Shown here one piece after another: positions 1,032 through 61,686 of a stretch of DNA of 64,000 nt. The first letter of the stretch is position 1, and every line of letters starts with the position of its first letter. Under the pieces are notes generated by a model. That model worked only from the letters and a program-made list of their open reading frames with translations. It was not told the origin of the DNA and did not search any database. Both the position numbers and the translations under genes were made by a program. The stretch comes from Octopus vulgaris (taxonomy: Eukaryota). Where the stretch lies: NCBI GenBank assembly GCA_951406725.2, contig OX597815.1:107322001-107386000 (forward strand), given 5' to 3'.

Positions 1032-1075
<44 letters not shown>

Positions 1076-1134: not shown

Positions 1135-1165
<31 letters not shown>

Positions 1166-1237
1166 TATATACACATATTCTTTTACTCTTTTACTTGTTT
1201 CAGTCATTTTGACTGCAGCCATGCTGGAGCACTACTG

Positions 1238-1272
<35 letters not shown>
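826..1272. repeat. Compound microsatellite (TATG)n/(TA)n/(CA)n with a SINE tail fragment (1178-1233, minus)
   Basis: Direct reading. Confidence 0.95.
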
Positions 1273-1273
<1 letters not shown>

Positions 1274-1283
1274 TTCTGGAATG

Positions 1284-1615: not shown

Positions 1616-1625
1616 AGATATATGC

Positions 1626-3426: not shown

Positions 3427-3629
3427 AAGGCAGTGAGCTGGCAGAAATGTTAACACACCAGGTGAAATGCTTAGCAGTGTTTTATGTTCTGAGTTCAAAT
3501 TTTGCCAAGGCCAACTTTGCCTTTCATCCTTTCGGGGTCGATAAATTAAGTACCAGTTGCATACTGAGGTCGATCTTAATAGATTCCTCCTCTCCCAAGA
3601 TTTAGAGCCTTGTGCCTAGAATAGAAAAA
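3427..3629 (+). mobile_element. MetaSINE-type SINE (family B), full length with TSD
   Basis: tRNA-like head (GAGCTGGCAGAA...GAGTTCAAATT) and core GCCTTTCATCCTTTCGGGGTCGATAAATTAAGTACCAG; 17-bp TSD GTTATCTTCATGRTCAA at 3410 and 3630. More than 20 further copies or fragments (e.g. 3985-4197-, 7246-7450+, 24155-24372+, 24478-24680+, 24953-25170-, 33200-33410+, 42770-42990+, 49732-49948+, 51200-51416-, 58543-58750-, 63853-64000+). Confidence 0.85.
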
Positions 3630-4964
3630 GTTATCTTCATGGTCAAGTTGTTTTATCAGTCATGACTTTGCTATTTTATTGCAATATGGCTTGGGAAAAT
3701 AAAATTCTAAATTTCTCTGTGCTATAAATTTATTCAGAACACCTTCAGAAATCTGGATCTTGTATTTCCTCTGTTGACATTCCTGCATTTCTTACAATCC
3801 TTGTGAGAAACAGTAGGGTGTAACTTACTGTTGACTCTCATAGCATTGATGCTGTGGTTTTGTTGTTGTTTTAGTGCATTAGCAAGAATGTTCATGAAGG
3901 AATGTTCTGTGAAGGATTACTTGCATACTGCCAAAATATGATCTGATGATGTGCTGCTGCATCCACATCAATAACAATACTAATAATGGTTTCAAATTTT
4001 GGTACAAGGCCAGCAATTTGAGGGGGGGTGTAAGTTGGTTGTATTGTCCCCCAGTAGTTGACAGGTACTTATTTTCAACTTTCAAAAGGTGAAAAGCAAA
4101 GTTGACTTTGGTGGAATTTGAACTCAGAACATAAAGACAGATAAAATGTCGCTAAGCATTTTTCCAGCATGCTAATGATTCTGCTGCTCACTGCCTAATG
4201 ACAATATTTATAATAACTGTTTCAAATTTTAGCACAAGGCCAGCAATTTTGTAGGTGGGGATTTGTTGATTACATTGACTCCAGTATTTCACTGATACTT
4301 ATTTTATCAACCCAGGAAGGTAGAAAGGCAAAGTTGACTTTGGCAGGAACTGAATATGAGATTAATTACAAATTCACACTAAAGATTCACTACTAATTGT
4401 CATATGAAAGAAGCATACCATTGACTAATTGTAGAAAGAATCTTAATCTGGCTGGCTCCAATCTAACAAATATTTGCTATGATAGATTTCTTCACTCAGC
4501 TGTCTCCTGCTCTGCTTGTGCGCATGGGATTCTTCACATATCTGGTTTTGTTGCACACTCTTCTCATCGTAACATGCCACAGGTTGCAAGTAAATGGTTT
4601 GGAAGGAGAAACTAGTGACTTCCATTCCCTGTAAAATTAAGGATGAAAAAAAAAAGGAAGATAAATAGAAAAAAACAAAAAAACAAAGAGAGCCAGTGAG
4701 AGAGAAAGTGAGTGAAAGGGGCAGTTGCAAATATCATCTCAAAAAGGAGTCGAAAGCTTATTACTGTTTAAGCAAGTGAATTTTGTGTACATCAATCATT
4801 GCAGTGTCAAGGTTTCATCTCAATGTTTATTGGTGGATGGTAGGTGATGGGTGGATGGTGAATGAAGTGCAGGAAGGAAGTCCGTCTTTGCAGTGATCAT
4901 AGCAGTGATAGTAATCAATATTGTACAAGAGATGAGGACAGTTTAACAAGTTATCTTATTCAAT

Positions 4965-5886
4965 ATCACTGTCGTCGTCACCACCACCACGGCGACCATC
5001 ACCACCACCACCACGACCATCACCACTATCATCATCCTCATCATCATCATTGTCCTCATCGTTGTCGTTGTTATCATCATCATCATCATCATCATTGCTA
5101 TCAACTTGAACACCTCTCTCTGCAGCAGCAGTAACAACAATAATAGACCAGTAAATCAGTCATCATCATCATCACCATCATTATCCTCATAATCACCATT
5201 ATCATCACGATCATTATCATCATCATCAGTGTTATTCATTGCCAGCATCAACTCTTCCACCAACACCATCACCACCATGACTACCATCATCACCACTAGT
5301 GTGTTCCTGTCTGCCAGCACCACCATTACCATCATTGCCATCCCCACCATTACTACCTTCACCATCACTATCACCATCACCACCACAACTACCACCATCA
5401 CCACCACCTGTGGGTTTTTCTCTGTCAGCACCACCATTATCATTATCACCATCACCATCACCATCTCCAACACTACTTTTGACAGCATCACCACTACCAC
5501 CATCACCATCATATTCACCCATTATTACTACCATCACCTGTATGTCACACTCTACCAACCTATCACAACCATTGCAACTACCAGCATCTATGCTATTCTA
5601 CACCACCACCACTACCAGCACCACCAGCACCACCAGCACCAGCACCACCCACAATGACAACCCCTTCCCCTACTACCATCATTTCACCACCATTACTATC
5701 ACCACTATATGTGTTACTTTCAAGTGGCACCACCACTATTACCATCACCACTACTACCAACACCCATGTGTTATTCTCTGACATCATCATCATCACTACC
5801 ATTAATATCATCAAATTAATACCATCACCACTACCATTAATACCATCACCAATGCCATCACACTCACCACCACCATCACCACTACT
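4965..5886. repeat. Degenerate (CAT/CAC/TAC)n trinucleotide low-complexity tract
   Basis: Direct reading; source of the poly-His/Thr/Met pseudo-ORFs. Confidence 0.9.
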
Positions 5887-6213
5887 TTAATTAGCAACTA
5901 AAAAAAAAATGAGAGAACCTCTATGTGGTTGTCCAATTTGGTAGAAATAACAAGCCAAATCATCCTCCAATGAAACACTAACATCTTGAGAAAGGAAGGA
6001 GACATCTGACAGTGACAATAACTGTGACAAAAATGATCCTTTCTACAATAAGTGCAAGGCCTGAAGTTTTGAGGGAAAGGAGCTATTTGATTACATCAAC
6101 CCTACATTTCAACTGCTTTGTCTGGATGAAGACAAAGTTGACCTTGGCAGCATTTGAACTCAGAAAGTAATGCTGGAAGACATGCCACCAAGCATTTTGT
6201 CGCATGCTCTATT

Positions 6214-6427
6214 ATTCTTTTACTTGTTTCAGTCATTTGACTGCGGCCATGCTGGAGCACCGCCTTTAGTTAAGCAAATCGACCCCAGGGCTTATTCTTT
6301 GTAAGCCTAGTACTTATACTATCGATCTCTTTTGCTGAACTACTAAGTTATGGGGATGTAAACACACCAGCATCGGTTGTCAAGCGATATTGGGGGGACA
6401 AACACAGACACACAAACACATACACAC

Positions 6428-6479
<52 letters not shown>

Positions 6480-6652
6480 GACGGGCTTCGACAGGCTTCT
6501 TTCAGTTTCTGTCTACCAAATCCACTCACAAGGTTTTGGCTGCCCCAAAGCTGTAGTTGAAAACACTTGCCAAAGGTTCCACGCAATGGAACTGAACACA
6601 GAACCATATGGTTGGGAAGCAAGCTTCTTACCACATAGTCATGCCTGCACCT
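6214..6652 (-). mobile_element. tRNA-derived SINE (family A) with internal microsatellite
   Basis: Reverse complement of the 17827-18233 family; nested in a minus-strand family B copy. Confidence 0.85.
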
Positions 6653-6763
6653 ATAATATGCTAATGGTTCTGCCAGCCAACAAGAATACCAGCCACAGGA
6701 AGGGCATCCAGCCATAGAAACTTATAAACATGTGTGTGTGCATGCGTGTATGCATGTGTGCGT

Positions 6764-6795
<32 letters not shown>

Positions 6796-6805
6796 GCCTG
6801 TTTGC

Positions 6806-6841
<36 letters not shown>

Positions 6842-6934
6842 ACTGGAAAACTTAACAAATAATCAAATGTTAAGGCTCATTCCACACTTCACTCCTGTAT
6901 CCAGCAGGGCTAGACAAAAGGCATCAAACCAGAG

Positions 6935-7208
6935 TTTAGGTTTGACGAGGCTGGCAACGGCCACAATCGCACGTAAAAAGCACCATCCGATCGTGGCCGT
7001 TTGCCAGCCTCATCTGGCACCTGTGCCAGTGGCACGTAGAAAGCACCCACTACACTCTCGGAGTGGTTGGCGTTAGGAAGGGCATCCAGCTGTAGAAACA
7101 CTGTCAGATCAGACTGGGCCTGGCGTAGCCTTCTGGCTTCCCAGACCCCAGTTGAACCATCCAACCCATGCTAGCATGGAAAACGGATGTTAAACGATGA
7201 TGATGATA
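6935..7208 (+). mobile_element. 5'-truncated RTE LINE 3' end (family C) with (GAT)n tail
   Basis: GGCACGTAAAAAGCACC units, then GTGGTTGGCGTTAGGAAGGGCATCCAGCTGTAG...GGAYGTTAAACGATGATG; linked to RTE ORF2 at 46515. Confidence 0.8.
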
Positions 7209-7455
7209 ATAATATTACTTAGAACTATAACCTTAAAATAATTACTAGGGTGGCAAGCTGGCAGAATCATTAACATGCCAGGCAAAATGCTTAGCAGCAT
7301 TTTTTCCATCTTTATGTTCTAAGTTCAAATTCTGCTATGGTTGACGTTGCCTTTCATCCTTTCAGAATAAGTACCAGTTGAGCATTGGGGCTGATGTAAT
7401 CAAATTAACCCCTCCATTGATATTGCTGGCTTTATGCCAAAGTTTGAAATTTAAT

Positions 7456-7808
7456 GCAAGAGCACTCAGAGAGTGCAAGCACCAACGTTTTCTTAACGAT
7501 TAGCCAGAGATGGCTTTTTAAAATGAGAATATCTGAAATAAACTCGACTGCTCTCACAAATGAGAATACTAAAACTGAACCCGACTGCTCTCAAAGATTA
7601 AGTAAAAAAAACAGGAAAAATAATCCAGAATCCTTGCCCGGTTCTAGATTGATCCCAAAATCTAATCAGTTTGTGCCCGTCATGAGGCCAAACATCCCTG
7701 AGAGTTTCATCCTAATCCATCCAGGGGTTCTTGAAATATCTTGTCCATGGACAAACAAACAAACACGACTGAAAACAATACCTCCACTTTTGCTAAGGGG
7801 GAGATAAA
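7456..7808 (+). mobile_element. Probable Helentron-associated (HINE/DINE-like) non-autonomous element
   Basis: Starts CAAGAGCACTCAGAGAG; internal (CAAA)n microsatellite followed by GAAAACAATACCTCC and a degenerate terminal hairpin. Family assignment is from recollection. Confidence 0.45.
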
Positions 7809-8059
7809 AATTGCAATAATACTAATTATTGAATTTGGTTTTAGGTTAAAGCTTGCTTAAACCTTATCATTGTGTGTATATATGTGTTTGTTTAAGTTTG
7901 CATTTATATTTATTTAAGTGTACTTTATGTTTTTACATGTATGTCCATAAATGTGGTTATGTTTTTATGCCTGTATTATATTTGTTTAAGATGTTTTCAG
8001 GTATATATATTTTTTTCTTTGGTGAGTGTACAGGTCCATGAGTGAGTATACTTATATTT

Positions 8060-8610
<551 letters not shown>

Positions 8611-9508
8611 CAGCAAGACATTAACATTATACATAAAAATATATATATAGAAATATACCAGAAAAAAAAACCAAAAACCATTTTTAAGCTACTGTTTCTT
8701 AATATACTGGCCTTATTGTTTATGATGTTGATGCTGATATCGTTGTTGATATTAGTAGCTGCCAGAACAATTCAAGTAGAGTCATTGTGTAGATTTCCCC
8801 AAAGATACCAATGGAAAAAGCATATTTTTAGTAGTAAAAGCTTATATCATATATTCCTTACCATTCTGATTCTACTAATGTAACTCTGATGTTGAGGCAG
8901 TTGACTACCATGTCACTCACTATTGTGTTTATTGTTTTAGTATTGATTCTTTTTGTTTTTTGATTCAGTTAACAGTTTCACTCCATCGTCATCACCCTTG
9001 TTGTTGTTGCTGTTGTTGTTGTTTTAATATCCTCTTTTCCATGCTTGCTTCAGTTGGCACGGTTTATTTGAGACAGATTTTCCACAGCTGGATGCCCTTT
9101 CTGTCATCCACCCTCACCTGTCTTTAAACAAGGTAATATTCCCCCATTGCCAGGTATGTTCTCACAGAATATAGGAAATTAATGACACTGCCTGTATGAC
9201 AGTGGCACTCATTTACAACTATCACACAATGTTAAGACATGGAAACACATGCACACACTCAAACACAAATACATACATACATACATACACACATACATAC
9301 ATACATACATACATACATACATACATACATACATACATACATACATACATACATACATACAAATATGCATACATTCATACACACATACAGCCAGACAAAT
9401 ATAAAATATAAAGAAAGTCAGCGGGTATGAGATGAATATATTTATTTCACCAATTTTTAAGTTATGGGGATGTAAACAAACCAACACTAGTTGTGGTGGT
9501 GGTGGTGG

Positions 9509-9576
<68 letters not shown>

Positions 9577-9682
9577 AATCCCCCCCCCAGAAATGAAGAA
9601 CAAACACAAGATAAAAAGCAACACTGTGAGGACATGGTACATGCAATGTATTAGCAGATGTTTAGGGAAGGAAGGAAAGGTG

Positions 9683-9717
9683 GCTTTACGTTTCGAGCAA
9701 AGCGTTTCTTCAGAAAC
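9683..9717 (-). ncRNA. Minimal type I hammerhead ribozyme motif in a (TA)n-flanked insert (9573-9784)
   Basis: Minus: GTTT CTGAAGA AACGCTTTGCTC GAAA CG TA AAGC. Stem I GTTT/AAGC, palindromic stem III ACGT, GUA site; stem II decayed. Confidence 0.65.
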
Positions 9718-9781
9718 AGGAGACAGAGGAAAGTCCAAGTGAAAAGGAAGACAGAGGGAAAAAATCGCCAACGATTCACAT

Positions 9782-9873
<92 letters not shown>

Positions 9874-10176
9874 TTAATGTCTGTGTTCTATGCTTGCATG
9901 GGTGGGATGGAACCATAAGAGCAGGCCAAGCAGAAGCCTGCACCAGACTTCTGTGACTGTTTTGGCAGGAGTTTTACAGCTGGATGCCCTTCCTAACACC
10001 AACCACTTTACAGTGGGGACTGAGTGCTTTTTATATGGCACAAGCACAGGCAAGGTGAGTAGTAGTTTTAACTTGGTACAAACACAGGGGAAGTCAGTTT
10101 TGGCAAGGTTTTTACAGCTGGATGCCCTTCCAAACACCAACCAATTTACAGTGTGGACTGGGTGCTTTTAAATTTC

Positions 10177-11074
10177 ACAAAAATAAAAATGACACTGACA
10201 TCTCATTTTAACAGATATATTTATCAAAATTACCTAAAAATATCTTCTTTTCAACAAAATTGCCATTGGCTTCAACCACAGCCTCCAGATGACTTTGTAA
10301 TCTCCTGTAAATCTTCTGGACAGCTCTTTGTATAAGTTAGTCAATGCTGCCATAATCCTTGCCTTCAGTTTATCTTTGGTGTTATAAGGAGTTTCGCTTG
10401 TCTCTTACTCAACTGTGTCCCACACATAATAATCAAGGGGGTAGCAGTCTAGGGAGTTATGTGGCCAGATGTTAGGAGTGACGTGATTACAGAAATTGTC
10501 TGACAGCCATGACTGAGTTCTCCTGCTTGTGTGGCATGGTGCAGAGTCCTGTTTTCAGACATAAGGGTTTTCCTGCAGCTGTCCTCTTTATCCAGGACAG
10601 CACTACCTACTCCAGGCACTGTGTTGAGTCTGAGGCCATGTAGGAAGACGAATGGAGGCATAATGTTGCCATCACTAGTGATCGCTCCAAACACCATGAT
10701 GTTGACTGGATGTTTGACTTTCATCACTCTTGGTTCATGTTTTGGGGACAGAGCAAACCAACAATTGTTCTGTGTGTTCACCATCTGATCTTGGTAGAAA
10801 TTTTTCCTAGCAGAAACCAAAGCATGTCTGGATGAAGCAGATGCTTGAGTTTGTTCAAAAGCTTTGTAGTTCAGTATTTCCTCTTGTCCTTGATGACTTG
10901 GGATAAAAATTAGCCCTTTTTCATCTATGTATGAGGAGTGCCAAATGTCTTCATGCACTCCTCATACATAGATGAAAAAGGGCTAATATACTGTATAGTC
11001 AGCAATATCAAAAACAATGTACATGCGTGAAGTTAAAAATATAAAATGGCAACAATTTATCTATCACACCCTGT
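10177..11074 (-). mobile_element. maT (DD37D)-like transposon, internally deleted
   Basis: KNFYQDQMVNTQNNCWFALSPK...KHPVNIMVFGAITSDGNIMPPFVF; terminus ...ATTTATCTATCACACCCTG-TA. Confidence 0.85.
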
Positions 11075-11116
11075 AATATATATATATAATGAATAAAAAC
11101 ATGGTAGATATGTCAG

Positions 11117-11200
11117 CTCATTACAGTTGTTTCTTACATAACTTTTAATGAAGAATGAGAAACATTAGATCATTTTTAAAGGCTGTGATCATCAGATGAG
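11117..11200 (-). ncRNA. Type I hammerhead ribozyme motif with canonical core
   Basis: Minus: CTCAT CTGATGA [55-nt imperfect stem II] GAAA CAACTG TA ATGAG. Perfect 5-bp stem I, near-palindromic stem III, GUA site; about 25 bp from (TA)n. Confidence 0.75.
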
Positions 11201-11889
11201 AATGAAGGGGTATCCCAAGAATTGCACTCACTGGACTGTGGTCATGCTGGAGCACTGCTTCGATGGGTTTACTTGAACAAGTCAGCCCTAAGTGTTAATT
11301 CTAGCAAATTGATCAACCATTTGGTAGCTCCTTCATTGACTCTGTTAACATGTATGCTGTTGTGCTTTAACATGAATTAATGACAGATGCTTCAGATGAG
11401 GCCCTTTATTCTATCTTCTTGATAAAAGACCATGACTGTAGTAATAGCCTCTGTTTTATCTGACAATACCATATTAAAGACATTTTTTGCTTTTATTATC
11501 AACTCAATTCATGCAAATGATGGCCATCGTCAGCCACTACCAATCAATTCTTGCAACTATCATTATTTAAGAAATGTGGCTCATTAACAATACAATAAGA
11601 AAAATTGGTGTCTTCTATATAAGAATCTACATTATAGGAAAGTTCTAAAATAACAGCATTCAGAATAACAGAAAACAACAATTAATGACACAATTGCTGT
11701 CATTGCATATCTTACAGTCTACTTCAGCCATCATGAAAATGATTTTTATAAAAATTCTTAAATGTTTATACTTGCCACAATTAAGTAATAGCCAAGTAAT
11801 TTCTCCTCTCTCTCCCTCTTGCACTCTCTTCCTCTTGCCCCCTCTCCCTCTCTCCCTCTCTTCCTCCTCTCTCTGAGTTGGCTAGTGAA

Positions 11890-13165
11890 GGGGTCAAGAA
11901 AAGATGTGTTTATGAGGATCAGCATAAAAATTCACACACTGACCAAGATACTCTCCTGGAATGTGGTCAAATGAGGTTAATTTTTCAACATAGTCCTCCT
12001 TGTGGTCCATGCACTTCTATCGTGTTGCAGTTCTAGAACCCCATTGGTGAAGAAGCTTTCATCCTGCTGGTAAAATTAAGTCATCAACTCCAGATATGAC
12101 ATCATCAACACTGCAATACTGGTTCCTAGCCATGTGCTTTTTCATGTTGGATAACAGATGATAGTCAGATGGAGCCAAATCAGGAGAATAGAGAGGATGA
12201 TCAACCAGTTCAAAGCCACAGTCACACACTGTAGCCATTGAAAATAAGGACTTTTGTGTTAGAACATTATCCTGATGAAACAAGACCCCTTTTGTCAGTT
12301 TTCCTGGGTGTTTGATCTTGAAAGCCTTTCATAACTGCCTCAGCAAGTTGTCATTGTACTCTCCATTGATGTTGTAGCCCTTTGAAGATAGTAAATAAAC
12401 AGAATGCCTTTTGCATTCTAAAAAACTGAGGCCATCATCTTCCCTGTAGACGAAACGACCATGGCCTTCTTTAGTGTAAGTGAGGGGTGGATTATGTCTT
12501 TGTATCTGGCTCAAAGTGATGAAGACAACACTCATCTTGGTTAAGGAAACATTCAAGGAAACCAGCTGGATCTGCTTCAAACAATGTCAGATTATCCTAT
12601 GACGTGGTTAGCCAGGTGCGCTTTTGATCAGGTGTCTGAAGATGTGACACTCACCAATGAGAAGCCTTCAAGTTCTTTGTGCAAAGTATTCTCAACTCTC
12701 TCATGGGATATGCAAATAGTGCAGTTGGTCACCTGTCATCTATCACCACATGGTGAAGACAATCAATGTTTTCATTGGTGGTGGCAGTTGCAGGACATTC
12801 AAACCTTGGGTCATCTCCAAGACTCTCCCTTCCCCTACTAAATTAAGCTGCCCACTTCTGCACTGTTGACAAAGCTGGAGCATCATCCTCTAATGCAGTA
12901 AACATGTCAGCATGAATATTGCTGGGGGCTAAATCCTTTTCCCACAGGTTCTTGATAACACAACAATTCCAACTTTTGCTCATATTCAAGAGAAGTTGCT
13001 ACTATTTGCATTTGAAGTCTTTTTTGAACTGTCAGATGTGAGTTTACCTGGAAAGGAACAATGCAGTTATTAATAAGAAGAGTTGAAATTGATGCATGCA
13101 TAATTTCATGGCTCTAGCACCACTCCTTCATAGTCAGCCAATGAACTTTTCAGCCCACCCTTGTA
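11890..13165 (-). mobile_element. mariner (DD34D) transposon, near full-length pseudogene
   Basis: FHQDN...HPLYSPDLAPSDYHL with 34 residues between the last two Asp; TIR CAAGGGTGGGCTGAAAAGTTCATTGGCTGA next to TA; multiple stops and frameshifts. Confidence 0.9.
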
Positions 13166-13328
13166 CATTGCAGTCTAACAAATCCCTTTACTGCCACTCT
13201 GTGAGAAGAATAGTTGATCGAGTGATATCTATTATACTGTATCTCTATATTTTATTTGCTTTCCTCTCCCTCCAACTCCTCTTTTATCTCCTAATATAAT
13301 AATGAGCGTAGTGTTTTTTTTTTAATAT

Positions 13329-13371
<43 letters not shown>

Positions 13372-14732
13372 CACATTTGTCCAGAATCATGCCAGACGTG
13401 GAGGGGGAGAGAAAATAATAATTCAGTGAAGGAGAAGTAGTGAGAGTAATAGCCCTGACAGAGAAGGAGTGAGAGAAAGTAATGGCAATGAGAGAAAGGA
13501 AGGCGTGATAGATGAATAAGGAAGGGATGGGTGAAAAATAATCAGTGTTTAAACTCTGTGTAAGTATATGTGTGCATGTGAGTGCGTGAACAAGTGAAGT
13601 ATGTGAATGTTTGTATGTGTGTTTATTATGACCTTATTTTGTACCTTATTTATACATAAAATACTACAGTTAATCATCATTATTGACAGCACGTAGTCAG
13701 CTAGTTTACATAATAAATGCATTTAAAAACAATTCCTTGACTAAGGAAAATTCACAATCACACCATTTCAGTTTCTTGAGATTGCTATTATTTTGTAAAT
13801 ATTTATTGAATTAGATTTTGTTCTGAAACAAAGGCAATGTTTTAGATTAATCCAGGTATTTATGAGTATATTAATACCTAGAATAATTCTTGTAAAATGC
13901 TAATACCAAGAACAAGGGAAGAAATATTAAAGGGAAAACAGAAAAAATATAAAACAACAGAACTACTTGCTCAACTTGTGAGAAATAAGGAAAATGAATC
14001 TTCCTCAAAGCACATCATCATTGGTCGATTGTCCACTTTTTCATACTTGCTTATGTTAGAGAAGTTTATTTGTTAAGACAGATTTTCTATGGCTAGATGC
14101 CCTTCCTATCACTATACCTCATCTGCTTCCAAGTAAGGTAATATTTCCCCATGGTTAGGTATGTCCTAGGCATGGGGAAAGTTGGAAACAGGGGATACTA
14201 ATTGAATGAAAATGGTGCTCATTTACAAGAACACACATGCATCTATACACACATCCTTGCAAACACAAACACACACACACACACACACACACATAGTATT
14301 TTTATATAAGCTTAAAGCTTATGGTGATCACTGTACTATGACTAAGGAAAATAGTGTAAAGGGGCATATAAGCCCTCGACAGAAAAAAGAAGGCTTACCT
14401 ATATATATATATATATATACACACATACACACATGTATATAATGAGCTTCTTCCAGTTTCCATCTGCCAAATTCCCTTACAAGGCTGTGGTCAGCTTTGG
14501 ATTATCATACACTTGTCTAAGGTGCCATGCAGTAGAATTGAACCTAAAACCATGTGGCTGGTTACTGAACTGCTTAACCCCACAACCGTGCCCACATCTA
14601 GTCTTGTCTGTTACTAGACTAGCACTTTACTAGAAATACCTACTGTCTTGAAAAAAATGAAGAATACATTAGATAAAGCTGTGGAAAAATAATAAGGTCT
14701 AATAAAGAAAAGGCATATTGAGAAACATTCAA

Positions 14733-15092
14733 CTCCGGGTTCAGTCCCACTGCGTGGCACCTTGGGCAAGTGTCTTCTACTATAGCCTCGGGCCGACCAA
14801 AGCCTTGTGAGTGGATTTGGTAGACAGAAACTGAAAGAAGCCTGTTGTATATATGTATATATATATATGCGTGTGTGTGTTTGTGTGTCTGTGTTTGTCC
14901 CTCTAGCATTGCTTGACAACCGATGCTGGTGTGTTTATGTCCCCTGTTACTTAGCGGTTCGGCAAAAGAGACTGATAGAATAAGTACTGGGCTTACAAAA
15001 GAATAAGTCCCGAGGTCGAGTTGCTCGATTAAAGGCGGTGCTCCAGCATGGCCGCAGTCAAATGACTGAAATAAGTAAAAGAGTAAAAGAGT
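14733..15092 (+). mobile_element. SINE family A, 5'-truncated
   Basis: Near-identical to 17827-18233. Confidence 0.9.
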
Positions 15093-15443
15093 ATGCTTCT
15101 AATACTCAACATTTAAATTGGACATATCCATAGTCAGTGGAAAATAGTCAAATAGACATTTGCGAGCTTATGAAAACCTAGTAATGTATAGAAATATAGA
15201 TGATAGCAACAGAATGTGATCACAAGAAATATTGACAAAATATTTTTATCAAAACTTTTTTGAAATGTCAGCACAGATATTGTTTTATGAAGCAGAGACA
15301 GAGAGCAAGGAAGGTAGGTATAATGTAAATAGCAGCTGCTCATTGAATGTGCATATATCACTCAGTGACAAAAACAAGTAGATGATATGATACTGTATAC
15401 TGTATATTGTATCTCATCCATACATACACATGCATATATTCGT

Positions 15444-15504
<61 letters not shown>

Positions 15505-15779
15505 TAGATGTTAAAGAATGATGTTAACAATGTATCTATATATATATGAATATATATGTGTATGTATTTAAGAATTTTTTGTGAAATGAGATAAAAAACC
15601 AAGGTTGTGTAAATATTAGAACATTTATAGATAGATGTGTATGTATTTATGTATGTCTGTTCACATGTATGCATATGCATATATATATATATATATATAT
15701 ATAGATAGATAGATGGATGGATATAGATAAATAAATAAATATATGGAGTTAAACGCAGGTATTATTCAATTCTTTATAC

Positions 15780-15864
15780 TTCCAACATATGTTTCGAAGA
15801 AAACATTGTATTATTCCCGAAGGAATAAAATAATGTAAAACAACACAATCTTCTCATCAAGGAA
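15780..15864 (-). ncRNA. Hammerhead motif, left-arm copy (C3U)
   Basis: Minus: TTCC TTGATGA GAAGA...TATTCC TTCG GGAATA...TCTTC GAAA CATATG TT GGAA. Confidence 0.65.
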
Positions 15865-16427
15865 AAGAAGAAACCAAATACATCAACAAGACATTTTAAC
15901 AGAATGTGATGACTGCGTATATGAGGAAGAGAATGGTGGCAAGTCATTTTTCAAAAAAACCATTAATAGATATAATGTCAAAGGCAATTTATAGAAAGAG
16001 AAGGAGGAGAAAGAAAGTAGCAGAAAATTAATAGTGTAGAAATATAGAGCAATAGGTGAATATGTGTAAAGCTTAAAGGCATTGAAATCGATATATTTAG
16101 TGGATATGAAATGTAAGAAAACAGTTAAAGCTTGAGGTCTACGAATATATAGAGCTTGTTCTTTAACTGTTTTCTTAAATTTCATATCCACTAAATATAT
16201 CTATTTCCACGCCTCTAAGCTTTATACGTATTCACCTATTGCTCTATATTTCTTCACTATTAGTTTTCTGCTAATTTCTTTCTTTCCCCTCCTTCTCTTT
16301 CTATAAATCACCTTTGATGTTATATCTATTAACGTTTTTTTTTTAAATGACTTGCTACCATTCTCTTCATCATATATGCAGTCATCACATTCTGTTAAAA
16401 ATGTCTTGTTGATGTGTTTGTTTTTTT

Positions 16428-16514
16428 TTCCCCTGATGAGAAGATTGCATTGTTTTACATTATTTTATTCCTTTAGGAATAATATTAATGTTTTCTTTGA
16501 AACATATGTTGGAA
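16428..16514 (+). ncRNA. Hammerhead motif, right-arm copy
   Basis: TTCCC CTGATGA(16433-39) GAAGA...TCTTT GAAA(16499-502) CATATG TT GGAA; palindromic stem III. Confidence 0.7.
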
Positions 16515-16713
16515 GCATAAAAAATTGAAGAACACCTGTGTTTAACTCCATTTATTTATCTATGTTATACAAAAACATTTCAGTTAACCCTGGAATTTCT
16601 ACCTTTATAAGTAGGCTATCACATCCTTGGTACCTATGTGAATTTTTGCTACCCTGGCAACTATTTATTTATTTTTTCTGTGTTGTTTGTACACATTGAA
16701 AAAATACACATAC

Positions 16714-16759
<46 letters not shown>

Positions 16760-16833
16760 ATATACATATATATATATATATATAAATAGATAGACAGACA
16801 GATCAATTGATAGATAGATAGATATATGTGTAT

Positions 16834-16884
<51 letters not shown>

Positions 16885-17273
16885 CACACATACACACACA
16901 TATCCACATATCTACTACTTGTATTTATATTTGATGATCTTCATTATTTTAGCAGAAAGCTTAAGAAATTATGCACACATGCACACACACATGCACACAT
17001 ACACACACATACACACACACACGCATACATGCACATGCATTCCACCACACTTACAACTGCATATAATATTGATATCCTAGTAATTATTGTTAAGTCAACC
17101 GTGTACTCTTATGCATATAAGTTATGTCATTCACAATACATCAAAAGTTTTGTCGAGGTATCAAGTAAATTTGCTCTAATATCATTCGTAGTTTAAGAGT
17201 GTGAGTTTAATGAGTCTTCAGTTCAATCCTCATTCCTTCATGGAACCACTTCCACTGTGAAAGACTACATATA

Positions 17274-27535: not shown

Positions 27536-30500
27536 GAAAGAGTAGAGAGAGCTGCAATTTAACATCTTAGCAGTTAATCATTTGGTAATATCTGTCAGAA
27601 TAAAACCCCGCTCTCCATGACAAGCTAGGTAAGTGGCACACAATAATATCATTGGCTTGGGGCTAGATTTACTTCATTTGTGGTCTTAAAACAAAGATGA
27701 GTTTAAATCTTATCACACACACATACACACACACGCTTACATGTACACATGCACATGCACGTACACACACTGTCAAGGTTGATAACACTAGCACTGATAG
27801 CAATATAATGAGATTTATTAACCTATTTACTTAATTGTAGCTTGTACTGATATTATTCTGCCAATCATAGTCTATTTGTCAGTAGTGCTATAATTTTAAT
27901 TCACTCCTATTTGTAGGGAAAGTATACATGTCACAAATGGGAGTCTCTATGAGAACACTTGATCTACTAGAAATAGCAGCTAAATCTTCATCACATCACG
28001 TTACATTAGATCAGTGGTTGTGAACCATATTTTACCTATGGACCCCTTTGATTTCTTTTTTATTTGGGTGGACCCTCATAGCTATGTGATGTTTAGAATA
28101 ATTCTATTATATTTTTAGACGTAAATATTATTAGGAATTGCATAAAAAAATAATTGTGAAGATATTTGGTGTATTAAAGAATTATAAGCAATTTATTGTG
28201 GATAAAGTTTTACAGAAAAGAAAAAAATTCTGATATGGACCTCAAAGGGTTGTAATGTAATCATATATATATAATTACATTGGATAATGAAATCATATAT
28301 ACAACAAAGGATTGTCATGACTAGAATGCTTTGTTCATAGGTCTGCTTGATCAGGCAAGACAACATCAACAATAAAAACACCAACAGCTGCAGGCATAGC
28401 TGTGTGGTTAAGAAGTTCTTTTAAGTAAAACAAGCAAAGTTGCCTTTTTGAGTTATGCCAACTCATAAGAGCCAGTTTACCTGTTTCCTTGGCATTTAAA
28501 TTCTCCACCTGGACAGGACGCTGGTCTGTTGCAGGATTACTATATTTTTGCCAGCTGAGTGGACTGGAGCAATGCGAAATGAAGTGTTTTGCTCAAGAAC
28601 ACAACATATTGCCCAGTCCAGGAAATCAAACTACTATCTTATGATTATGGGTCCAACACCCTAACCACTAAGCCATGCACCTCCACAAGAAGTTCTTTTA
28701 GCAACCACATGGCTTTGAGTTCAGTTCCACTGCATGGTGCCATAGCAAGTATCTTTTACTATAGCTCTGAACTGGCCAATGCCTTGTGAATCAATTTGGA
28801 AACTGTGTGGTTGCCTGTTGTATATATGTGTGTGTGTGTGTGTTTTGTGTCTGTATGTTTGTATATGCATATATATATGTGCATATTTTTGTGCTTGTCT
28901 CTCCCACTGTTTGACAACCGATGTTAGTTTGTTTGCAACTTCATGACCTTGTGATCTGGCAAAAGAGCCCTATAAATTAAATATCAGATAAAAATTAAGT
29001 GCTGGGGTTGACTGAGTCGAAAAAGCCCTTAAAGGTGGTGTCCCAATGACTGAAACAAGTAAAAGAATAAAAAAAATAAAACAACAAAATCAACAACTCT
29101 TGAGTATAATGCTTGATGGAAGAATATGTTTAAACGTCCAATAATAATCTGATGTTTTGAAGGTTTGTCTGGAATAAACTTAATTTGAACATCTACCTGT
29201 TTTAATTATAGCTGAGTTAAACAAAGCAGTTCCTAATGAATTGTTTATAAAGTGCAGCTTTTCTCATAAAATGGAAATCATAGACATTTATACACACATA
29301 TAAATATGCACATGGGAATACAAATGTATGTATACAAACAATCATAAAAAATATATATATATAAGTACCATGAAATATATATATATGTATATAACTATTT
29401 ATTAAATAGTATATAGTTATACAGAGCATTGCCTAATACTTGGAACATGTACTAATTTTGAGCAAATACAGTTGAAAGCTTAAACTTTGCAAATTGAAAA
29501 TATTGTTTAAATATCCTATCATTCTTTCTGGTATTCTCTTACATCCCTATTTCAGGGATGACTGTCTCCTCTTCAGGGAAGATGCACCTTCATTTTGCAG
29601 TTATCTAGAGAACTAGTAATCTAAATCAGTATACATATAGAAGTAATTTATTTGCATATAACATTAATAATTTACCTGATTTGCTTATAATATATTAGCC
29701 ACATAGTTAATTAATATATCTATGTAGAAGACACAAGGCAATTCATAATACCTGAAACATATATAATGTTGATGAATCTGCAATTATCTGTTTTTTTTTT
29801 TTCTGTGACGTGCGTATGACCATGTCAACACTCCTGCTTGGCTTTGTTTATCGTCCCCCAAGTTGAGTTGTAGTGCACCTGAGCACTGTACACAATTATT
29901 ATTATTATTATTATTATTATTATTTTAAAACTTTGGCTGTGGAGATTGCAAATGATGTACAAACACTATATTGTTTCCTATAATAAATAGAGAAGCAATC
30001 CCCTTACAATTTTGCTTCACAGCTAATTTGATTTATCTGTATGTTTCCACATATTTCATTTTATGTATATTTCTGGTAAAGTTTATAGGCAAGTTGTGAA
30101 GGAAGGAAATAAATTTTACAGTGAAGCAGTATTTTCTCATGGGCCACTAAATTAAGATAGAACAAACAGAAGGGGAAAATGAAGCACTTCCTGGGGTAAG
30201 CAATGGTTAAGGTTGGAAGGGTAAGAATAGTTATTTCTACCTTGGTCTAGAACAGCTAAGTTAAATTTTAAAAAAATTAAATTCATAGAACTGAAATATA
30301 TTGAAATATATAAAGATTACATATTTTATTCCAGTTTAGTTTGTTAGTCATCTGATATAGTTTTCATTGAATTTTACGTACACTTAACAATTTAATCCAT
30401 TTATAATAAAAGAACCAGTTTTAACCAATTTTAATTATCTCTTAATTTAGTGTTTTACAGGAAACTTTTAAAAACATCACATTTATGGCAAAATTTATAA

Positions 30501-33744: not shown

Positions 33745-35335
33745 TGTTTAATTAGGATGAATATTGTTACATGGTTATGAAAAGGGAGAAAACTGTAAAC
33801 CAGACTAGCAATATCTCCATCAATGACTTGACTGTTTCCCCTATATCTGATGAGGGATGTTACAGGTATCTAGGGAGTCGATGAAAACATGTATTACAAT
33901 GGCACCAGTAGCAAAACATGTGTCACTAAAGAATATTACAGCCAAATAAAGAAAATTTGGACCTCAGACTCTCTGCATTCAATAAAACAGTGGCCCACAA
34001 TGTGTTTGCAGTGCCAGTACTCATACTAGAATTTGGGCTGCTTGATTGAACGATTGATGAGATCTTAGCCATTGATGTGAAAATCCCCAAAATACTAACA
34101 AGCACACATAATTTCCACATAAACAGTGATGTAGACTGCCTCTACCTAAAATGAAAACAAGGCAGAAGAGGCGTAACATCAATCCAAAATGCCTTTGAAT
34201 GTCGTATCATATCCCATTTGGTAACATCTTTTAACCATCAAGTGCCAAAGTGCATCCCTTGACCAAGTTGGCATAGATTAGGTTGATAACATCAGACTTG
34301 GAAGGCAGCTCCTTGAGCAGCATAGCTTGTCTGATAACCTTAAATACATACCCAAAGAGGTTGCACAACTCTACCGCAATGTTTCATAAGATGAAAAAAT
34401 GAGCATATATCAGCTGAAGGCTATGCATGTATAGGTTAGTGGTTTGCAACCCAGGAACAAGAAATATCAACCAAATACTTGATGCACAAAAGGGATAGAA
34501 ATGCAGGAAAAGCAGTAAAATGTGGCAAATGATGCAGACTTTGTGGAGTTAACACCAAAGATATCACTCACATCATAAGCAGTTGTCTGAAAATGTCATC
34601 ATAGTATTATCTACTAATGGGACATGATGTTGTCACTAGGACACACGATAATGAAATCCGTCAGAAGGATAATCCCATAGACAAAGAAATAGGAACCCAC
34701 AATATCGTAGATGCCATAGCCACTCATAATAAAAAGGAATACTGGTGGAATGTCCCAGCAAAAACCACCATAAAATGTAAGCACAACAGATCTGATATAA
34801 TGATTTGGGATAGAGAAGAGAAACTGTGCACAGTTGTGAAAATTAGCTGCCCAGTGGATGTTAACATAACACTCAAGATCAGTGAAAAAGAGAATACCAA
34901 CACTGAACTATTGAGAAATCTGAAGTTACTCTATCCAGATTACAAGTTCAGGTTTATGCCTGTAATTATTGGAGCCCTGGGATATGTAACACAATGCCTA
35001 AATACTAATCTAGAGAGAGAAATTAGGATTCTCAAAACTAGAAAGGAGAAAGCTTATTCAAAGACTACAGATCCAATCCATAACTGGAACTGTAAAAATC
35101 TGTAAAACTTTCCAGAAGTTTATCATTTAATTATATATGAGCAAGTCTAGATATGCCACTATATGCATATGAATGCATACATAAAGTAAAGCATACAAAT
35201 CTGCACATGTAAATAGATACATACATGCATACAAAAATACCCTGTTGATGTTGAAATTACAATGAAAGAACCCTGGATCTAGGTTAGAAACTGACTCTTT
35301 TTCTATGAGCAAGAAATCTTAAAATAAAACAACAG
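33745..35335 (+). mobile_element. 5'-truncated R4/Dong-like non-LTR retrotransposon (RT thumb, CCHC, RLE nuclease)
   Basis: CYRYLG, AFNKTVAHNVFAVPVL, SDVDCLYLK*KQGRRG, CRLCGVNTKDITHIISSC, GHD, NRSDIMIWD...ISCP...IIGALG; flanked by (TACA)n on both sides. Confidence 0.88.
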
Positions 35336-36870: not shown

Positions 36871-37014
36871 CTTAACAGATACATTTGCCCAGTCCCAGGT
36901 AAAATCAAAATCATCATTGTCCCCATTGTGACTTCATAGCAAAATCCAAACCTGGACTCAAATTATATTAATGCATCCAATAAAAATAAATGCAGCTTCT
37001 TTTTAAATCAAGCA

Positions 37015-37564
37015 AAAATGCTAGTTCGAAAATCTCTCTAAGAGATCAATGCAGTAGTTGTACTGACAAGTAATATTTGTAGCCACTTTAACATGGCTGT
37101 TCATTCAAACGGACTCTACTGTGATTTTATTAACCCCAAGAGGACATCTCTAGCTGGTTAACGAATCACAGCTGCATCTGATAATATTGCGAGCAGGGGA
37201 GCAAACCCTTACTCTCTCCTAGTGTTGGGACCAGTAGACCAGTCCTAGTTTCAGGCTATTTCTGCCACTCCTCGGTACTCGACACCTCAAATCCTAGAGA
37301 TGATAGCAGTTTGCTTCTGCATACAATATATATATATATATATATTTCAAGTGAACACACGGTCACTGATTTTGCAACAAATAAAAATGCTAGCTCTAAG
37401 ATCTCTCTCAGAGATCAACACAGTAGTTGTACTGACAAGTAATATTTGCAGCCACTTTAACATGGCTGTCTATTCAAGCAGATTCTACTGCAATTTCTTA
37501 ACCCCAAGAGGATATCTCCTTTAGTTGGTTAATGATGTACAGCTGCATCCAATAAAATTGTGAG
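37015..37564 (-). repeat. Two diverged direct repeats of about 180 bp (37015-37193, 37383-37564) around a hammerhead and (TA)n
   Basis: Both copies contain AAAAATGCTAG...CAGTAGTTGTACTGACAAGTAATATTTG...TAACCCCAAGAGGA...CAGCTGCATC. Confidence 0.85.
37222..37285 (-). ncRNA. Type I hammerhead motif with bulged, extended stem I (U4C core)
   Basis: Minus: GTGTCG AGTA CCGAGGA GTGGC AGAAATA GCCT GAAA CTAG GA CTG GTC TACT GGTCC CAACAC; GUC site. Confidence 0.65.
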
Positions 37565-48441: not shown

Positions 48442-48728
48442 AACAATTGCAACGTGGAAGGTGTTTATAAGCCATTTAAAAGGATACAAAAACCGTTAGA
48501 TTCACTTCAGCATTTACATTTAATTTGCCAAAATATTTTCATTGCTTTGAAACAGCGATCTTTTCACTGACAAAATTCCGTGCTGCATGCGGAAGTTTGT
48601 CAGTGAACAGGTTGCGGTCTCAAAGCGACGAAAATATTTTGGCAAATTAAATTTAAATGCTGAAGTGAATCTAACAGTTTTGTGTGTTTCTTAAATGGCT
48701 TATAAACAACTTCCACACTGCAATTGTT
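48442..48728. repeat. Imperfect palindrome (about 139-bp arms, 9-nt spacer); PLE-end-like insert 48384-48726
   Basis: AACAATTGC...TTCCG / CGGAA...GCAATTGTT; flanking duplication TTATAAAAATATA / TTACAAAAATATA. Confidence 0.9.
48596..48646 (+). ncRNA. Minimal type I hammerhead with G3-C8 swapped core (decayed mirror copy 48524-48574 minus)
   Basis: TTTGTCA GTGAACA G GTTGC GGTCTCAAA GCGAC GAAA ATAT TT TGGCAAA; 7-bp stem I, 5-bp stem II, palindromic stem III AATATT. Confidence 0.7.
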
Positions 48729-50367: not shown

Positions 50368-50486
50368 GCTTACAGCCATATCACATTGAAAACACCAGTT
50401 CTCATCCAATCACCAAAGTTAAGCAACATCGAGCCTAGTTGGTACTTAGATGGGTGACTGCTTGAGGAACCTAGGGGCTGTAAGCA
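50368..50486 (+). pseudogene. 5S rRNA pseudogene, full length (119 bp)
   Basis: GCTTACAGCCATATCACATTGAAAACACCAGTTCTCATCCAATCACCAAAGTTAAGCAAC...GTACTTAGATGGGTGACTGC...GCTGTAAGCA. Terminal helix GCTTACAGC/GCTGTAAGC; many CpG-type substitutions; solitary; no T-run terminator. Confidence 0.9.
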
Positions 50487-51567: not shown

Positions 51568-52795
51568 GGGTGTGATGGGTAAATTGCTGCTGTTTTATAT
51601 TTTTGATTTCAGGCACGTGCATTGTTTGCTTTTGATTTTGTCGACTACACAGTATAGTAGGGTCAGTTGGGTACTGTCTGTGAGAAAAACAGCACATGAC
51701 GCAATTCACTCTGCCAGAAATTTGGAAACGATATACTGTACTGCTTGGCATTCATGCTGGAAGCTCCAATATGAATATTTCAGAGTGTTTGGGTGTCAAT
51801 CTGAAGACAGTGCAGAGGATTGAGAAAGTGTTGGCTGAATCTAATGATAATTATGAAGGTGCAGCAGCTCAGAAAACTCACTCTGACTGTTCTGATAAGA
51901 AAAGAACACCTGAATTTGTTGGTGAGATCTAGGTCATGATTGACAAACGATCTCTCCAAGTCAATCAGATCCATCACTAGGGACATGGCAATGTCTGATT
52001 TTTTTATCAGGTAGGTAGGGCATGAAGACATTCAGTATTCCTCATACAAGATGAAGAAGGGCCATTTTTTTTATCTCAAGCCATCAAAAACAAGAGGGAA
52101 GATCTTGGACAAACTCAAGCATCCCTTCCAACTGAACATGCTTTGGTTTTTCTCAGATGACAAAAATTTCTGCCAGGATCTGATGGTGAACACTCAGAAC
52201 AACTGTTCGCTTGTCGTATCTTCAAAGCATATACTGAGAGTGATAAAAATCAAACATCCAGTCAACAGCATGGTGTTTGGAGTCATCACTAGTGATGGCG
52301 ATGTTATGCCTCCATACATCTTTCCACACAGCCTCAGACTCAATGCAGAGTCTTACATCAAGTGCCTGGAGGAGGTAGTGCTGCCCTGGGTCAAGAGGGT
52401 GGCTGCTGGAAGACTCTATGTCTGGCAACAGGACTCTGCACCATGCCACACATGCAAGAGAACCTAGTCACGGCTGTCAGACAATTTCTGCAACCATATC
52501 ACTCCTAACATCTGGCCACCTAACTCAGCAAGACTGTAACCCTTTTGATTATAATGTGTGGGGCGCAGTTGAGTTCACCAAAGATGAACTGAAGGCAAGG
52601 ATCTTGGCAGCATTGACTAACTTAAACAAGGAGACCATCCAGAAGAGTTGCAGGAGATTCTAAAGTCGTCTGGAGGCCATTGGTTGAAGGCAATGGCTAT
52701 TTTATTGAATAAATTTACTCTTCAGCATTTCAAGATAATTTTATGTAATTTTGCTAAATATATCTGTTAAAATGAGATGCCAGTGTTTATTTACA
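51565..52795 (+). mobile_element. maT (DD37D)-like transposon, near full-length pseudogene
   Basis: WFFSDDKNFCQD...MVFGVITSDGDVMPP...YVWQQDSAPCH...IWPPNS.DCNPFDYNVWG, with about 37-residue D-D spacing after frameshift repair; 5' TIR GGGTGTGATGGGTAAATTG. Confidence 0.9.
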
Positions 52796-59506: not shown

Positions 59507-59588
59507 ATAAATATTAGGGAATAAATCCAAATTTACAGGGAAAAATCAGATTTAGGATTAAATCCAATTTTATAGTAAAATATTATAT

Positions 59589-59746
59589 AATATTAATTAG
59601 AGACAAAACCACTATTTTGCAAAACAAACAAGGAAAGACTTAATCAATACATAAAATTTTAATAAAAAGACTTTTTATTAAAATTTTATGTATTGATTAA
59701 GTCTTTCCTTGTTTGTTTTGCAAAATAGTGGTTTTGTCTCTAATTA

Positions 59747-59751
<5 letters not shown>
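59589..59751. repeat. Perfect palindrome, 81-bp arms, 1-nt spacer
   Basis: AATATTAATTAGAGACAAAACC...AATAAAAAG A CTTTTTATT...GGTTTTGTCTCTAATTAATATT, between (TA)n tracts. Confidence 0.95.
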
Positions 59752-59789
<38 letters not shown>

Positions 59790-59792
<3 letters not shown>

Positions 59793-59976
59793 ATTATAAA
59801 TAAGGGCAAAAAGAAAGAAATTTCTTTGCCGACATACTGAAAAATAGACGCTAAATCGTTTAACCACATAAATATTTTCACTTGTATTACTACACCATAT
59901 GGTTAGATGATTTAGTGTCTATTTTTCAGCATATTGGTAAATAATTTTTTTTCTTTTTGCTCTTATTTATAATTGT
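59790..59976. repeat. Imperfect inverted repeat, about 77-bp arms, 33-nt spacer
   Basis: ACAATTATAAATAAG...TTTAACCA / TGGTTAGA...CTTATTTATAATTGT. Confidence 0.88.
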
Positions 59977-60111
59977 ATTTATAATTTTCACCTTAAAAAG
60001 GTATTTTTCATATGCTTACCACTGATAAAATGTTTTAATAAAATTTTGTATATATATAAGGTAGAAAATATTTTAGTGGGGAAACACATGTGGTGGATAT
60101 ATATAGAAAGG

Positions 60112-60288
60112 GAAAAGATGAAAAACACAGAAGATTTGTTTTACAGGGTTTAAGAGTATTTTGTACAAAATAAGGTTTTGTTCTTTCAACATAATTGAAG
60201 TACAAAATTGTTTAATATCTTTATTATCATGGCTCTAATATACTCTTAAATCCTGTAAAACAAATCTTCAGTGTTTTTTCATCTTTTC
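60112..60288. repeat. Inverted repeat, about 48-bp arms, 80-nt spacer
   Basis: GAAAAGATGAAAAACAC...TAAGAGTAT / ATACTCTTA...CATCTTTTC. Confidence 0.88.
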
Positions 60289-60306
60289 TATATGTATGTA
60301 TATATA

Positions 60307-60463
60307 CTTTATTTAAAGCAGCAGAAAATTCAACAAAACCTGTTACTCTGAGTTTCACGTTCCCGTTCGTCGGGCAGTTTTTGCTAGAAAAACTGTCCGA
60401 CGAACGGGAACGTGAAACTCAGAGTAACAGGTTTTGTTGAATTTTCTACTGCTTTAAATAAAG
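60307..60463. repeat. Near-perfect palindrome, 76-bp arms, 5-nt spacer, 2 mismatches
   Basis: CTTTATTTAAAGCAG...CAGTTTTT GCTAG AAAAACTG...CTGCTTTAAATAAAG; unpaired tail to about 60536, then (TA)n. Confidence 0.95.
60393..60430 (+). ncRNA. Minimal type I hammerhead, U4C core (mirror copy 60340-60377 minus)
   Basis: CTGT CCGACGA ACG GGAA CGT GAAA CTCAGAG TA ACAG; GNRA-capped stem II, palindromic stem III, GUA site. Confidence 0.78.
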
Positions 60464-61686
60464 CATATTACTCTACCACTGGTATTTGAGTACTCTTTTT
60501 TTCACCTTGTTTCACATTTATGTGTTTACTCTGGTGTATATATATATATATATATATAGATTATTATTATCATTACTATATTTATCCTACATTATGTTGG
60601 CACAGCTCAGAACAATCCTATAGAGCTGCTGCTGCAGGTTGGAATCAGTAGGAGCTTTTATATGCATACTTAAAAATGTTTCCCGTAAATGAACTTAAGT
60701 GTGTGTGTGTGTGTGTGTGTGTGTCTGTATTTGTCCTCCATCACTGCTTGACAACTGGTGTTGGTGTAACTTAGTGTTTCAGCAAAAGAGACCAATAGAA
60801 TAAGTACCAGTCTTAAAAAAAAAAAAAACGATAATTACTGGGGTAGGGAGGAATGATTTGTTTGACTAAAAATTCTTCAGGGTAGTGCCCCAGCATGGCC
60901 ACGATCTAATGACTGAAACAAGTGAAAGATAAATGATAACAAAACCAAAACCTGGTTGGATTTGAACTCAAAATGTTGATCAAGCCACTGAACTTTAGGT
61001 ATCATGAAGCATTTATCCTAGTTCTTTGGTAGTTTTGTCCATCTCTGCTACTCTCAGATATGTACGATAATGGATCAGAGATGTCTTATTAGCAGCTGCA
61101 GTGTGCTGATGGGGGAGTTGGTAGAGGATCGGTGCAGTTTGACTGATTATTATGGATATCATCTGCAAGTTTAATAGCAGCACGAGCTATGCATCAGTTG
61201 ATAATGTCTGGATAATTGAGGCTCCATTTAGATATAATGTACACATTATTACTGATGGGGAAAGTAGGAGAAGAATAAAAATAAAAAAAAAAAGCAGAAA
61301 AAGAATAAGAACAAGAAATTTAGTTTTAAAGAAGAGAGAAGAACATTCTGTAGTTGGTAGAAGAATAAGAAACAGAACGATGACACAAGACCTACGAATG
61401 AAGAACTGCTCATGGGTCGGTATAGAGTAAATCAAGAAAATGGAAAGCTAATGGATATAGCAGAATGTAAAAGAAACAAAAATAGAAAAAGAAAAAGAAA
61501 AATAACTAAGGAGAAAATATTTCTTTCTTTCTGGAGGAGGGGGGGGGGCAAAGCAAAAAAAAAACATGAAGCAAGAAAAATAAGAAAAACAAGAGAAACC
61601 TTGTCTTATTATCACTACTATTATCATTCTCATTTCTATTAGCATTGTGCGTGCAATGTCACAACCACACTGAGGAAGACAATCGT

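Follow-up and report, generated by a model that had tools for sequence, protein, structure and literature searches.

The 64,000-nucleotide window of Octopus vulgaris DNA analysed here (the whole stretch, to which all positions refer) contains, at about 60.4 kb, a short inverted repeat, each arm of which carries a hammerhead-like motif with C instead of U at position 4 of the core. This arrangement raises the question of how the palindrome was formed, whether the C4 core is peculiar to this locus, and whether the pairing of the two arms serves, as proposed in a sequence-only reading, to silence the ribozyme and so protect host transcripts from cleavage.

Structure and origin of the insert

The inverted arm (60307-60382, minus orientation) is the shorter copy of the 3' end of the element, while the direct arm (60388-60463, plus orientation) comprises the hammerhead motif, a T-rich stretch and an AATAAA box at 60457-60462. 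The arms differ at 2/76 positions (60322/60448 and 60374/60396) and flank a 5-nt fold-back centre (60383-60387), which is a perfect palindrome minus one base in a gapped self-alignment. All CpGs are intact on both sides (4/4 per arm; the observed/expected CpG ratio of the window is 0.27), and the near identity of the arms and the retention of their CpGs, pointed out in the sequence-only reading, are thus confirmed. The span given there for the palindrome, 60307..60536, is correct for 60307-60463 but not for 60464-60536, a one-sided tail of 73 nt with no counterpart in the left arm. The direct arm runs through AATAAA and these 73 further bases into a (TA)n tract (60537-60558). The inverted arm ends at the mirror of 60463 within a TA-rich flank (60290-60306), in which 4/5 of the bases preceding the arm mirror 60464-60468 (microhomology). 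Both sides of the insert are TA tracts, the two C4 motifs lie on opposite strands and face outwards, and self-comparison of the sequence revealed no direct repeat of the insert unit at the locus.

Contigs from 4 public sequencing runs (of 24 listed) were aligned to the insert at 80% likeness and 10% share; three of these are DNA or unlabelled runs bearing three species labels (X1, X3 and X5), and the fourth is a run guessed to be of RNA (X9). The aligned records numbered 8859 (X1), 6305 (X3), 4935 (X5) and 364 (X9). Depth over 60292-60533 amounts to 1e5-2e6 in X1, X3 and X5, compared with 31-147, 62-96 and 6-9, respectively, over the flank at 60578-60643. It climbs from bin 60292-60313, at the beginning of the inverted arm, and is as high as 2.3e6 in 60468-60489, so that the tail belongs to the same family. 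The insert represents a single copy of a repeat of very high abundance (60292-60533), which behaves as a dispersed multi-copy family with TA targets under all three species labels. Summed contig depth was rejected as a measure of copy number. Scans with patterns of the family gave no matches in metagenome contigs, viral contigs or prokaryote genomes, and two matches of a shorter pattern (L001 and L002), having nothing else in common with the element, were dropped as chance.

Both differences between the arms are private to this copy: in 4/4 runs the other letter is present at 60374 in 88-100% and at 60448 in >99%. With one private change per arm, the description of the palindrome as young is reasonable, although arm-to-arm conversion could mimic youth. 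The head-to-head form is not confined to this locus, since diverged records also cross the centre: 9/32 of those listed carry 7-24 other letters (four in X1, two in X3, one in X5 and two in X9). In other copies, the identical centre letters preceding 60388 follow a left arm that stops at 60314, 60341 or 60349. The depth measured at 60388 corresponds to 2-4% of the value over 60389-60401, and X1, X3 and X5 all show recurrent loose ends at 60389 and 60391 that represent two further continuations in the upstream direction (with an agreement of only 0.5). A reading of the pile of loose ends at 60389-60391 as a hot spot of truncation was not accepted, since this is where the reference itself ends. 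A single head-to-tail joint, from 60500 to 60389, was found in one contig.

It has been described that insertions of Penelope-like elements (PLEs) possess a shorter inverted copy, a self-priming junction palindrome, a one-sided tail and (TA)n targets, and that head-to-head copies are their usual insertion product (available text of PMC3846280 and PMC8557442). The same combination of a 5'-truncated copy, an adjacent shorter inverted copy and a palindromic junction was found here and recurs elsewhere in the family. The insert is therefore likely to be built as a truncated inverted PLE insertion, a membership that is assigned by architecture and not by linkage to a reverse transcriptase-endonuclease gene: inspection by eye of the 48 open frames of at least 110 aa in the window revealed no RT or GIY-YIG gene, and, of six short motifs taken from the element and from the sequences next to it, none had a match in the PLE supplement of PMC8557442.

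Probably, this locus is a heavily 5'-truncated PLE copy in (TA)n that was doubled head to head by self-primed fold-back, the hammerheads being passengers. According to this scenario, synthesis by the element's reverse transcriptase would have been limited to the last ~150 nt of an RNA that had not been cleaved, comprising the hammerhead, AATAAA and the tail; the short centre, being self-complementary, would then have let the end fold back, and 76 nt would have been copied a second time. The second arm may have been attached to the target by AT microhomology of a few bases, which would leave it without a tail. Both arms have gained one private change each after insertion. In the parent element, the motif would function slowly and as a dimer, by way of its palindromic helix III and possibly with the assistance of protein, and C4 could spread because insertion does not need cleavage. 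In this respect, it has been reported that hammerhead core mutations leave PLE insertion in vitro unaffected and that unprocessed RNA serves as the main substrate, with internal initiation behind the tail and a protein-assisted hammerhead (Frangieh et al., in the available part of PMC11167929).

Alternatively, the palindrome itself might be mobile, i.e. a non-autonomous fold-back derivative copied whole from a palindromic master, in which case the doubling would not be local. Several diverged contigs crossing an identical centre in 4/4 runs, the recurrence of the centre letters, and a depth at 60387-60388 of 11-12 thousand in X1 and X3 (18-76 for single-locus contigs) are in accordance with such an origin. 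However, the left arms end at differing places, the tail is one-sided, and the small share of depth that crosses the centre is in part chance run-on from the other upstream types. Moreover, a transcript of the whole palindrome would form a 76-bp hairpin, presumably a poor template, and recurrent self-priming at one short palindrome accounts for the common centre (as far as described in PMC3846280). We consider this alternative quite unlikely. Two further classes were rejected, namely non-LTR retrozymes, because there is no head-to-tail tandem at the locus and only the one such joint in one contig, and MITEs or fold-back DNA transposons, because of the one-sided tail, the minor fraction of depth crossing the centre and the recurrence of other upstream continuations.

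Three further palindromes of 180-210 nt, separated by (TA)n and devoid of hammerhead boxes, lie directly to the left (59580-59761, 59783-59983 and 60097-60303). They are likely to be fold-back stubs of other TA-targeting elements, the last of them being itself a family of moderate abundance, with a depth of 700-17000 in X1 and X3. One contig of X9 (the guessed RNA run; depth 2.4) spans 60111-60321 with seven differences, four of them A>G (60143, 60145, 60263 and 60264), each of which falls on an A-U pair of the hairpin at 60097-60303. This is a weak hint of plus-strand transcription with A-to-I editing, and an allele or error may also explain it.

Elsewhere the window resembles repeat-rich animal DNA. 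Older palindromes, also without hammerhead boxes, are present at 15727-16568 (852 nt, 87%) and 48442-48728 (291 nt, 86%), and there is a smaller palindrome at 10909-10987. A 5S rRNA-like sequence at 50368-50486 (plus strand; 82 bits, E 6e-16, several broken pairs) is probably a pseudogene or a SINE head, and is the only match in the window at the Rfam gathering score. The open frames at 10449-10961 (minus), 52015-52467 (plus) and 1113-1499 (plus) are, we assume, Tc1/mariner transposase fragments, and that at 34605-35105 (plus) is presumably a non-LTR endonuclease fragment.

The hammerhead motifs and their predicted folding

The predicted plus-strand motif, of type I, occupies 60389..60435 and is identified by the descriptor, by folding and by the variable sites of the family. 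Its stem I pairs 60389-60396 with 60427-60435 (4+4 bp and one bulge) and its core is at 60397-60403, with C3 at 60397 and C4 at 60398. It continues through stem II (60404-60413, 2-3 bp with a GNRA loop) and the GAAA box (60414-60417) into a palindromic helix III (60417-60425, 4+1+4), and the GUA triplet ends at 60426, which places the predicted cut between 60426 and 60427. The predicted minus motif spans 60335..60381 (C3 60373, C4 60372, N17 60344). Both cores read CCGACGA, as the sequence-only reading had stated.

The descriptor allowed any base at position 4 and required at least 4 bp in stem I and at least 3 bp in stem III; the plus copy matches it with stems I, II and III of 4, 3 and 4 bp. 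After block-wise dinucleotide shuffling of the window (200 times), there were 0.045 strict matches per shuffled window and a single match with C4. The type I core boxes (C3-U4-G5-A6-N7-G8-A9, G12-A13-A14-A15.1 and U16.1-H17) are present in both copies except that U4 is C. C4 is a known natural deviation, which weakens the term canonical, not the term hammerhead. Stem II lacks the G10.1-C11.1 pair, having instead an A after A9 followed by C-G pairs, and the base before G12 (60413) varies. Among the 30 matches of 60250-60560 to Rfam at E<=10, there was no hammerhead, the matches being to generic hairpin models. As Rfam is blank at both places in the window with a C4 motif (for the second, see below), the assignment rests on the descriptor together with the variation within the family.

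The two motifs are not equivalent. The private change at 60374 affects the stem I pair that adjoins C3 and the cleavage site of the minus copy: its U is substituted, so that this pair is lost and no core-proximal stem I pair is left. In the plus copy, the core can be surrounded by three paired helices, with stem I as the open end. The divergent twins of the sequence-only reading do exist and point outwards; only the plus one is intact.

Folding was predicted with ViennaRNA, whose model does not extend to tertiary contacts. For the monomer, the probability of the hammerhead fold was 7e-5 with C4, 6e-6 with U4 and 2e-6 for the minus copy; this fold is less stable than the best one by 4-6 kcal/mol, and for the double hammerhead the gap to the best cofold amounts to 7-9 kcal/mol. 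In the C4 form, this base pairs with the region of stem II, and stem II goes from 0.96 to 0.04, while with U4 the core pairs with loop III instead; the predicted effect of C4 is the loss of a core-trapping helix with loop III and the gain of one with stem II. Helix III (60417-60425) forms no hairpin on its own in the monomer and is predicted to form an 8-bp intermolecular duplex of -7.4 kcal/mol, which is a dimer signature at the level of the model. The opposite-strand copies cannot form such a dimer from one transcript. In the full palindrome, whose hairpins have energies of -141 and -137 kcal/mol, the probability of the hammerhead fold is ~1e-57.

A transcript of either strand carries the antisense arm first, as had been claimed, and would form a 76-bp hairpin that blocks the ribozyme, a predicted by-product of the geometry. 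On both strands, this block is predicted to be complete and to set in during transcription, G5 being paired with its antisense partner at P=1.0 once the core is transcribed, and one low-depth contig of X9 crosses the left junction. This might suggest that the upstream antisense arm is a safeguard, kept because it stops the ribozyme from cutting host transcripts. However, an antisense block arises from any head-to-head duplication, the usual form of PLE insertions, and the three palindromes directly to the left have no core boxes. The lone motif is predicted not to form the hammerhead, with C4 as with U4, and no cleavage was seen with a PLE monomer in published work (in the available part of PMC4209133), so there would be little to silence. 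In addition, most copies are without this centre, and no host gene was identified at the locus. We therefore regard such a safeguard as very improbable: nothing beyond the geometry speaks for the self-silencing role put forward in the sequence-only reading.

Position 4 across the family

On the left arm, U4 (60372 G>A) was counted in 2650/67023 (X1), 54055/127494 (X3), 20027/32184 (X5) and 358/623 (X9). Counted by left-arm contigs, it is found in 26/~94 (X1), 25/83 (X3), 29/72 (X5) and 4/19 (X9), i.e. about 21-40%. U at 60398 is below 10% in X3 and X5, in which all three C>T places are among the listed variants. By depth, U4 accounts for about 6-16% in X3 and 10-22% in X5, the range being obtained by bracketing the depth at 60398 from the bin mean and from 60408; the upper bound leaves aside X1 and X9, each with one C>T place outside the listed variants. 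These are tallies of contigs and not of genomic copies, biased towards the C4 reference and with variants near contig ends undercounted. Among similar copies, most have C4 and a minority U4, the counts by contig and by depth being in agreement. The family consensus is therefore not U4, and a C4 that leads in so abundant a family predates the duplication and insertion at this locus; the proposal that the core variant is older than the palindrome was correct.

U7 is also present in the family, so that both textbook core letters, U4 and U7, exist within it. Since C4-G5 and C7-G8 are CpGs, CpG decay was considered as the source of U4 and U7, and was rejected: in X3, for which every C>T and G>A place is accounted for, C4>U and C7>U occur at at least 10% and the partner changes G5>A and G8>A do not. 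U4 is presumably the ancestral state, as the universal consensus would suggest.

At least six positions within 60389-60435 vary among the listed variants of X3. These are positions 4 and N7, the variable base (N) of the GNRA loop, the base that precedes G12, the middle base of the palindromic helix III and the bulge in stem I. Four of these 6 fall among the 7 unpaired non-core positions of the 47 (Fisher p=0.003; the unpaired set was fixed after inspection of the table, and subfamily variants represent few independent events). Helix III stays palindromic, with only its centre base varying across the family, and in X9 alone U16.1>C reaches 14%. We read this pattern as the trace of past selection on the hammerhead in master elements. 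That the motif is no ribozyme homologue but a chance match or long-dead relic in an ordinary repeat is scarcely credible: the missing Rfam match, the positive folding z-scores (1.15 and 0.35), C4 itself, the weak stem II and the variable 60413 would fit it, but they are opposed by the rarity of strict matches in shuffled windows, the occurrence of U4 and U7 in the family, and variation that avoids the core and stems and preserves the helix III palindrome.

It is known that a natural viroid hammerhead with U4C has considerably lower activity in vitro and is still infectious (cited in Perreault et al. 2011, PMC3088659, as far as available). The core change is identical here; the present case differs in that it is the majority state of a high-copy animal repeat, with no evident compensating tertiary loops, and is known from sequence alone. 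We give somewhat better than even chances to the expectation that C4 slows cleavage without abolishing it. Far more speculative, and in our judgement rather unlikely, is a scenario in which an animal retroelement lineage switched to a working, selected U4C core, maintained, under selection, both the other core positions and the palindrome used for dimer formation, and was amplified beyond its U4 sister in three or more species, with C4 retuning the ribozyme and a subset spreading as hairpins that are transcribed and A-to-I edited. Were this true, the family would constitute a large natural set of U4C hammerheads that descriptors restricted to U4 have missed.

The sequence-only reading had also invoked a C4 core in an unrelated motif of the same window. 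Such a motif exists: the descriptor predicts a type I hammerhead on the minus strand at 37222..37286 (C3 37275, N17 37237), with a stem I of 4 bp, a stem III of 5 bp and an imperfect stem II, and no C4 match of this quality occurred in 200 shuffles. It has no blastn similarity to the 60.4 kb element, and no hammerhead was among the 2 Rfam matches at E<=10 for 37150-37350. Being a single decayed-looking copy, it is weak evidence that C4 is tolerated. The motif and a TA tract lie between two direct repeats (83%, 369 nt apart) within 37001-37564, a region that is possibly a decayed tandem, either retrozyme-like or a partial PLE tandem. A further box pair with U4 (9687-9713; 9713, minus strand) passes the descriptor and is of the minimal PLE type, with a stem I of 4 bp and a two-base helix III. 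Other U4 hammerhead-like box pairs, at 29540-29576 (minus), 32345 (plus) and 33847 (plus), look decayed or may be due to chance.

Related elements and significance

Among the closest known systems are the minimal and small-helix-III hammerheads of type I in metazoan PLEs (Cervera and de la Pena 2014). According to the available text of PMC4209133, PLE ends carry dimer-type hammerheads and opposite-strand pairs, the dimers showing low cleavage. The motif described here resembles them in being of type I, in its short stem I without a clear loop 1, in a palindromic helix III that implies dimers, in the U-rich 3' flank, and in the mass of truncated copies and the opposite-strand pairing. It differs in having C4, where 56/56 PLE representatives have U4 (Fig. 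S3 of the same paper), in the absence of a G10.1-C11.1 pair, in a stem II of only 2-3 bp with a GNRA loop and in a longer helix III (4+1+4). The arms also abut, whereas the published opposite-strand pairs are 100-700 bp apart.

With the inverted pLTR insertions that have been described for PLEs bearing an endonuclease (Arkhipova et al. 2013, PMC3846280; Craig et al. 2021, PMC8557442; available parts), the insert shares the shorter inverted copy, the junction palindrome, the tail at one end and the (TA)n target, which masks any target duplication. In contrast to these, no ORF is left here, and the tail is 73 nt long instead of 30-40. Non-LTR retrozymes (PMC7229834; bioRxiv 10.64898/2026.07.22.740005; as far as available) are likewise non-coding animal elements with a type I hammerhead, a weak palindromic helix III and a relation to PLE ends. 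However, they form head-to-tail tandems of ~170-400-nt units, whereas this is a single head-to-head stub, in which the uncleaved 5' half of the ribozyme is kept.

The palindrome and its apparent self-silencing need no new biology, as they are those of an ordinary PLE-type stub. What is modestly new is that, in an animal repeat of very high abundance, the majority of cores have C4, with U4 as the sister state. No C4-majority animal family was named in the titles and abstract openings of the surveyed literature; PLE hammerhead variants have been studied by Lunse et al. (summarised in the review PMC6765202, available in part), and that work may show C4.

One repeat family with C4 and U4 subfamilies, in which C4 is ahead, represents a paired natural experiment and a clean test of whether cleavage by the PLE hammerhead is needed for the spread of the element (PMC4209133 and PMC11167929, in their available parts). 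If C4 is dead, massive amplification in vivo does not need cleavage. If C4 is active, textbook descriptors overrate how essential U4 is, and counts of animal hammerheads obtained with a fixed U4 would be too low.
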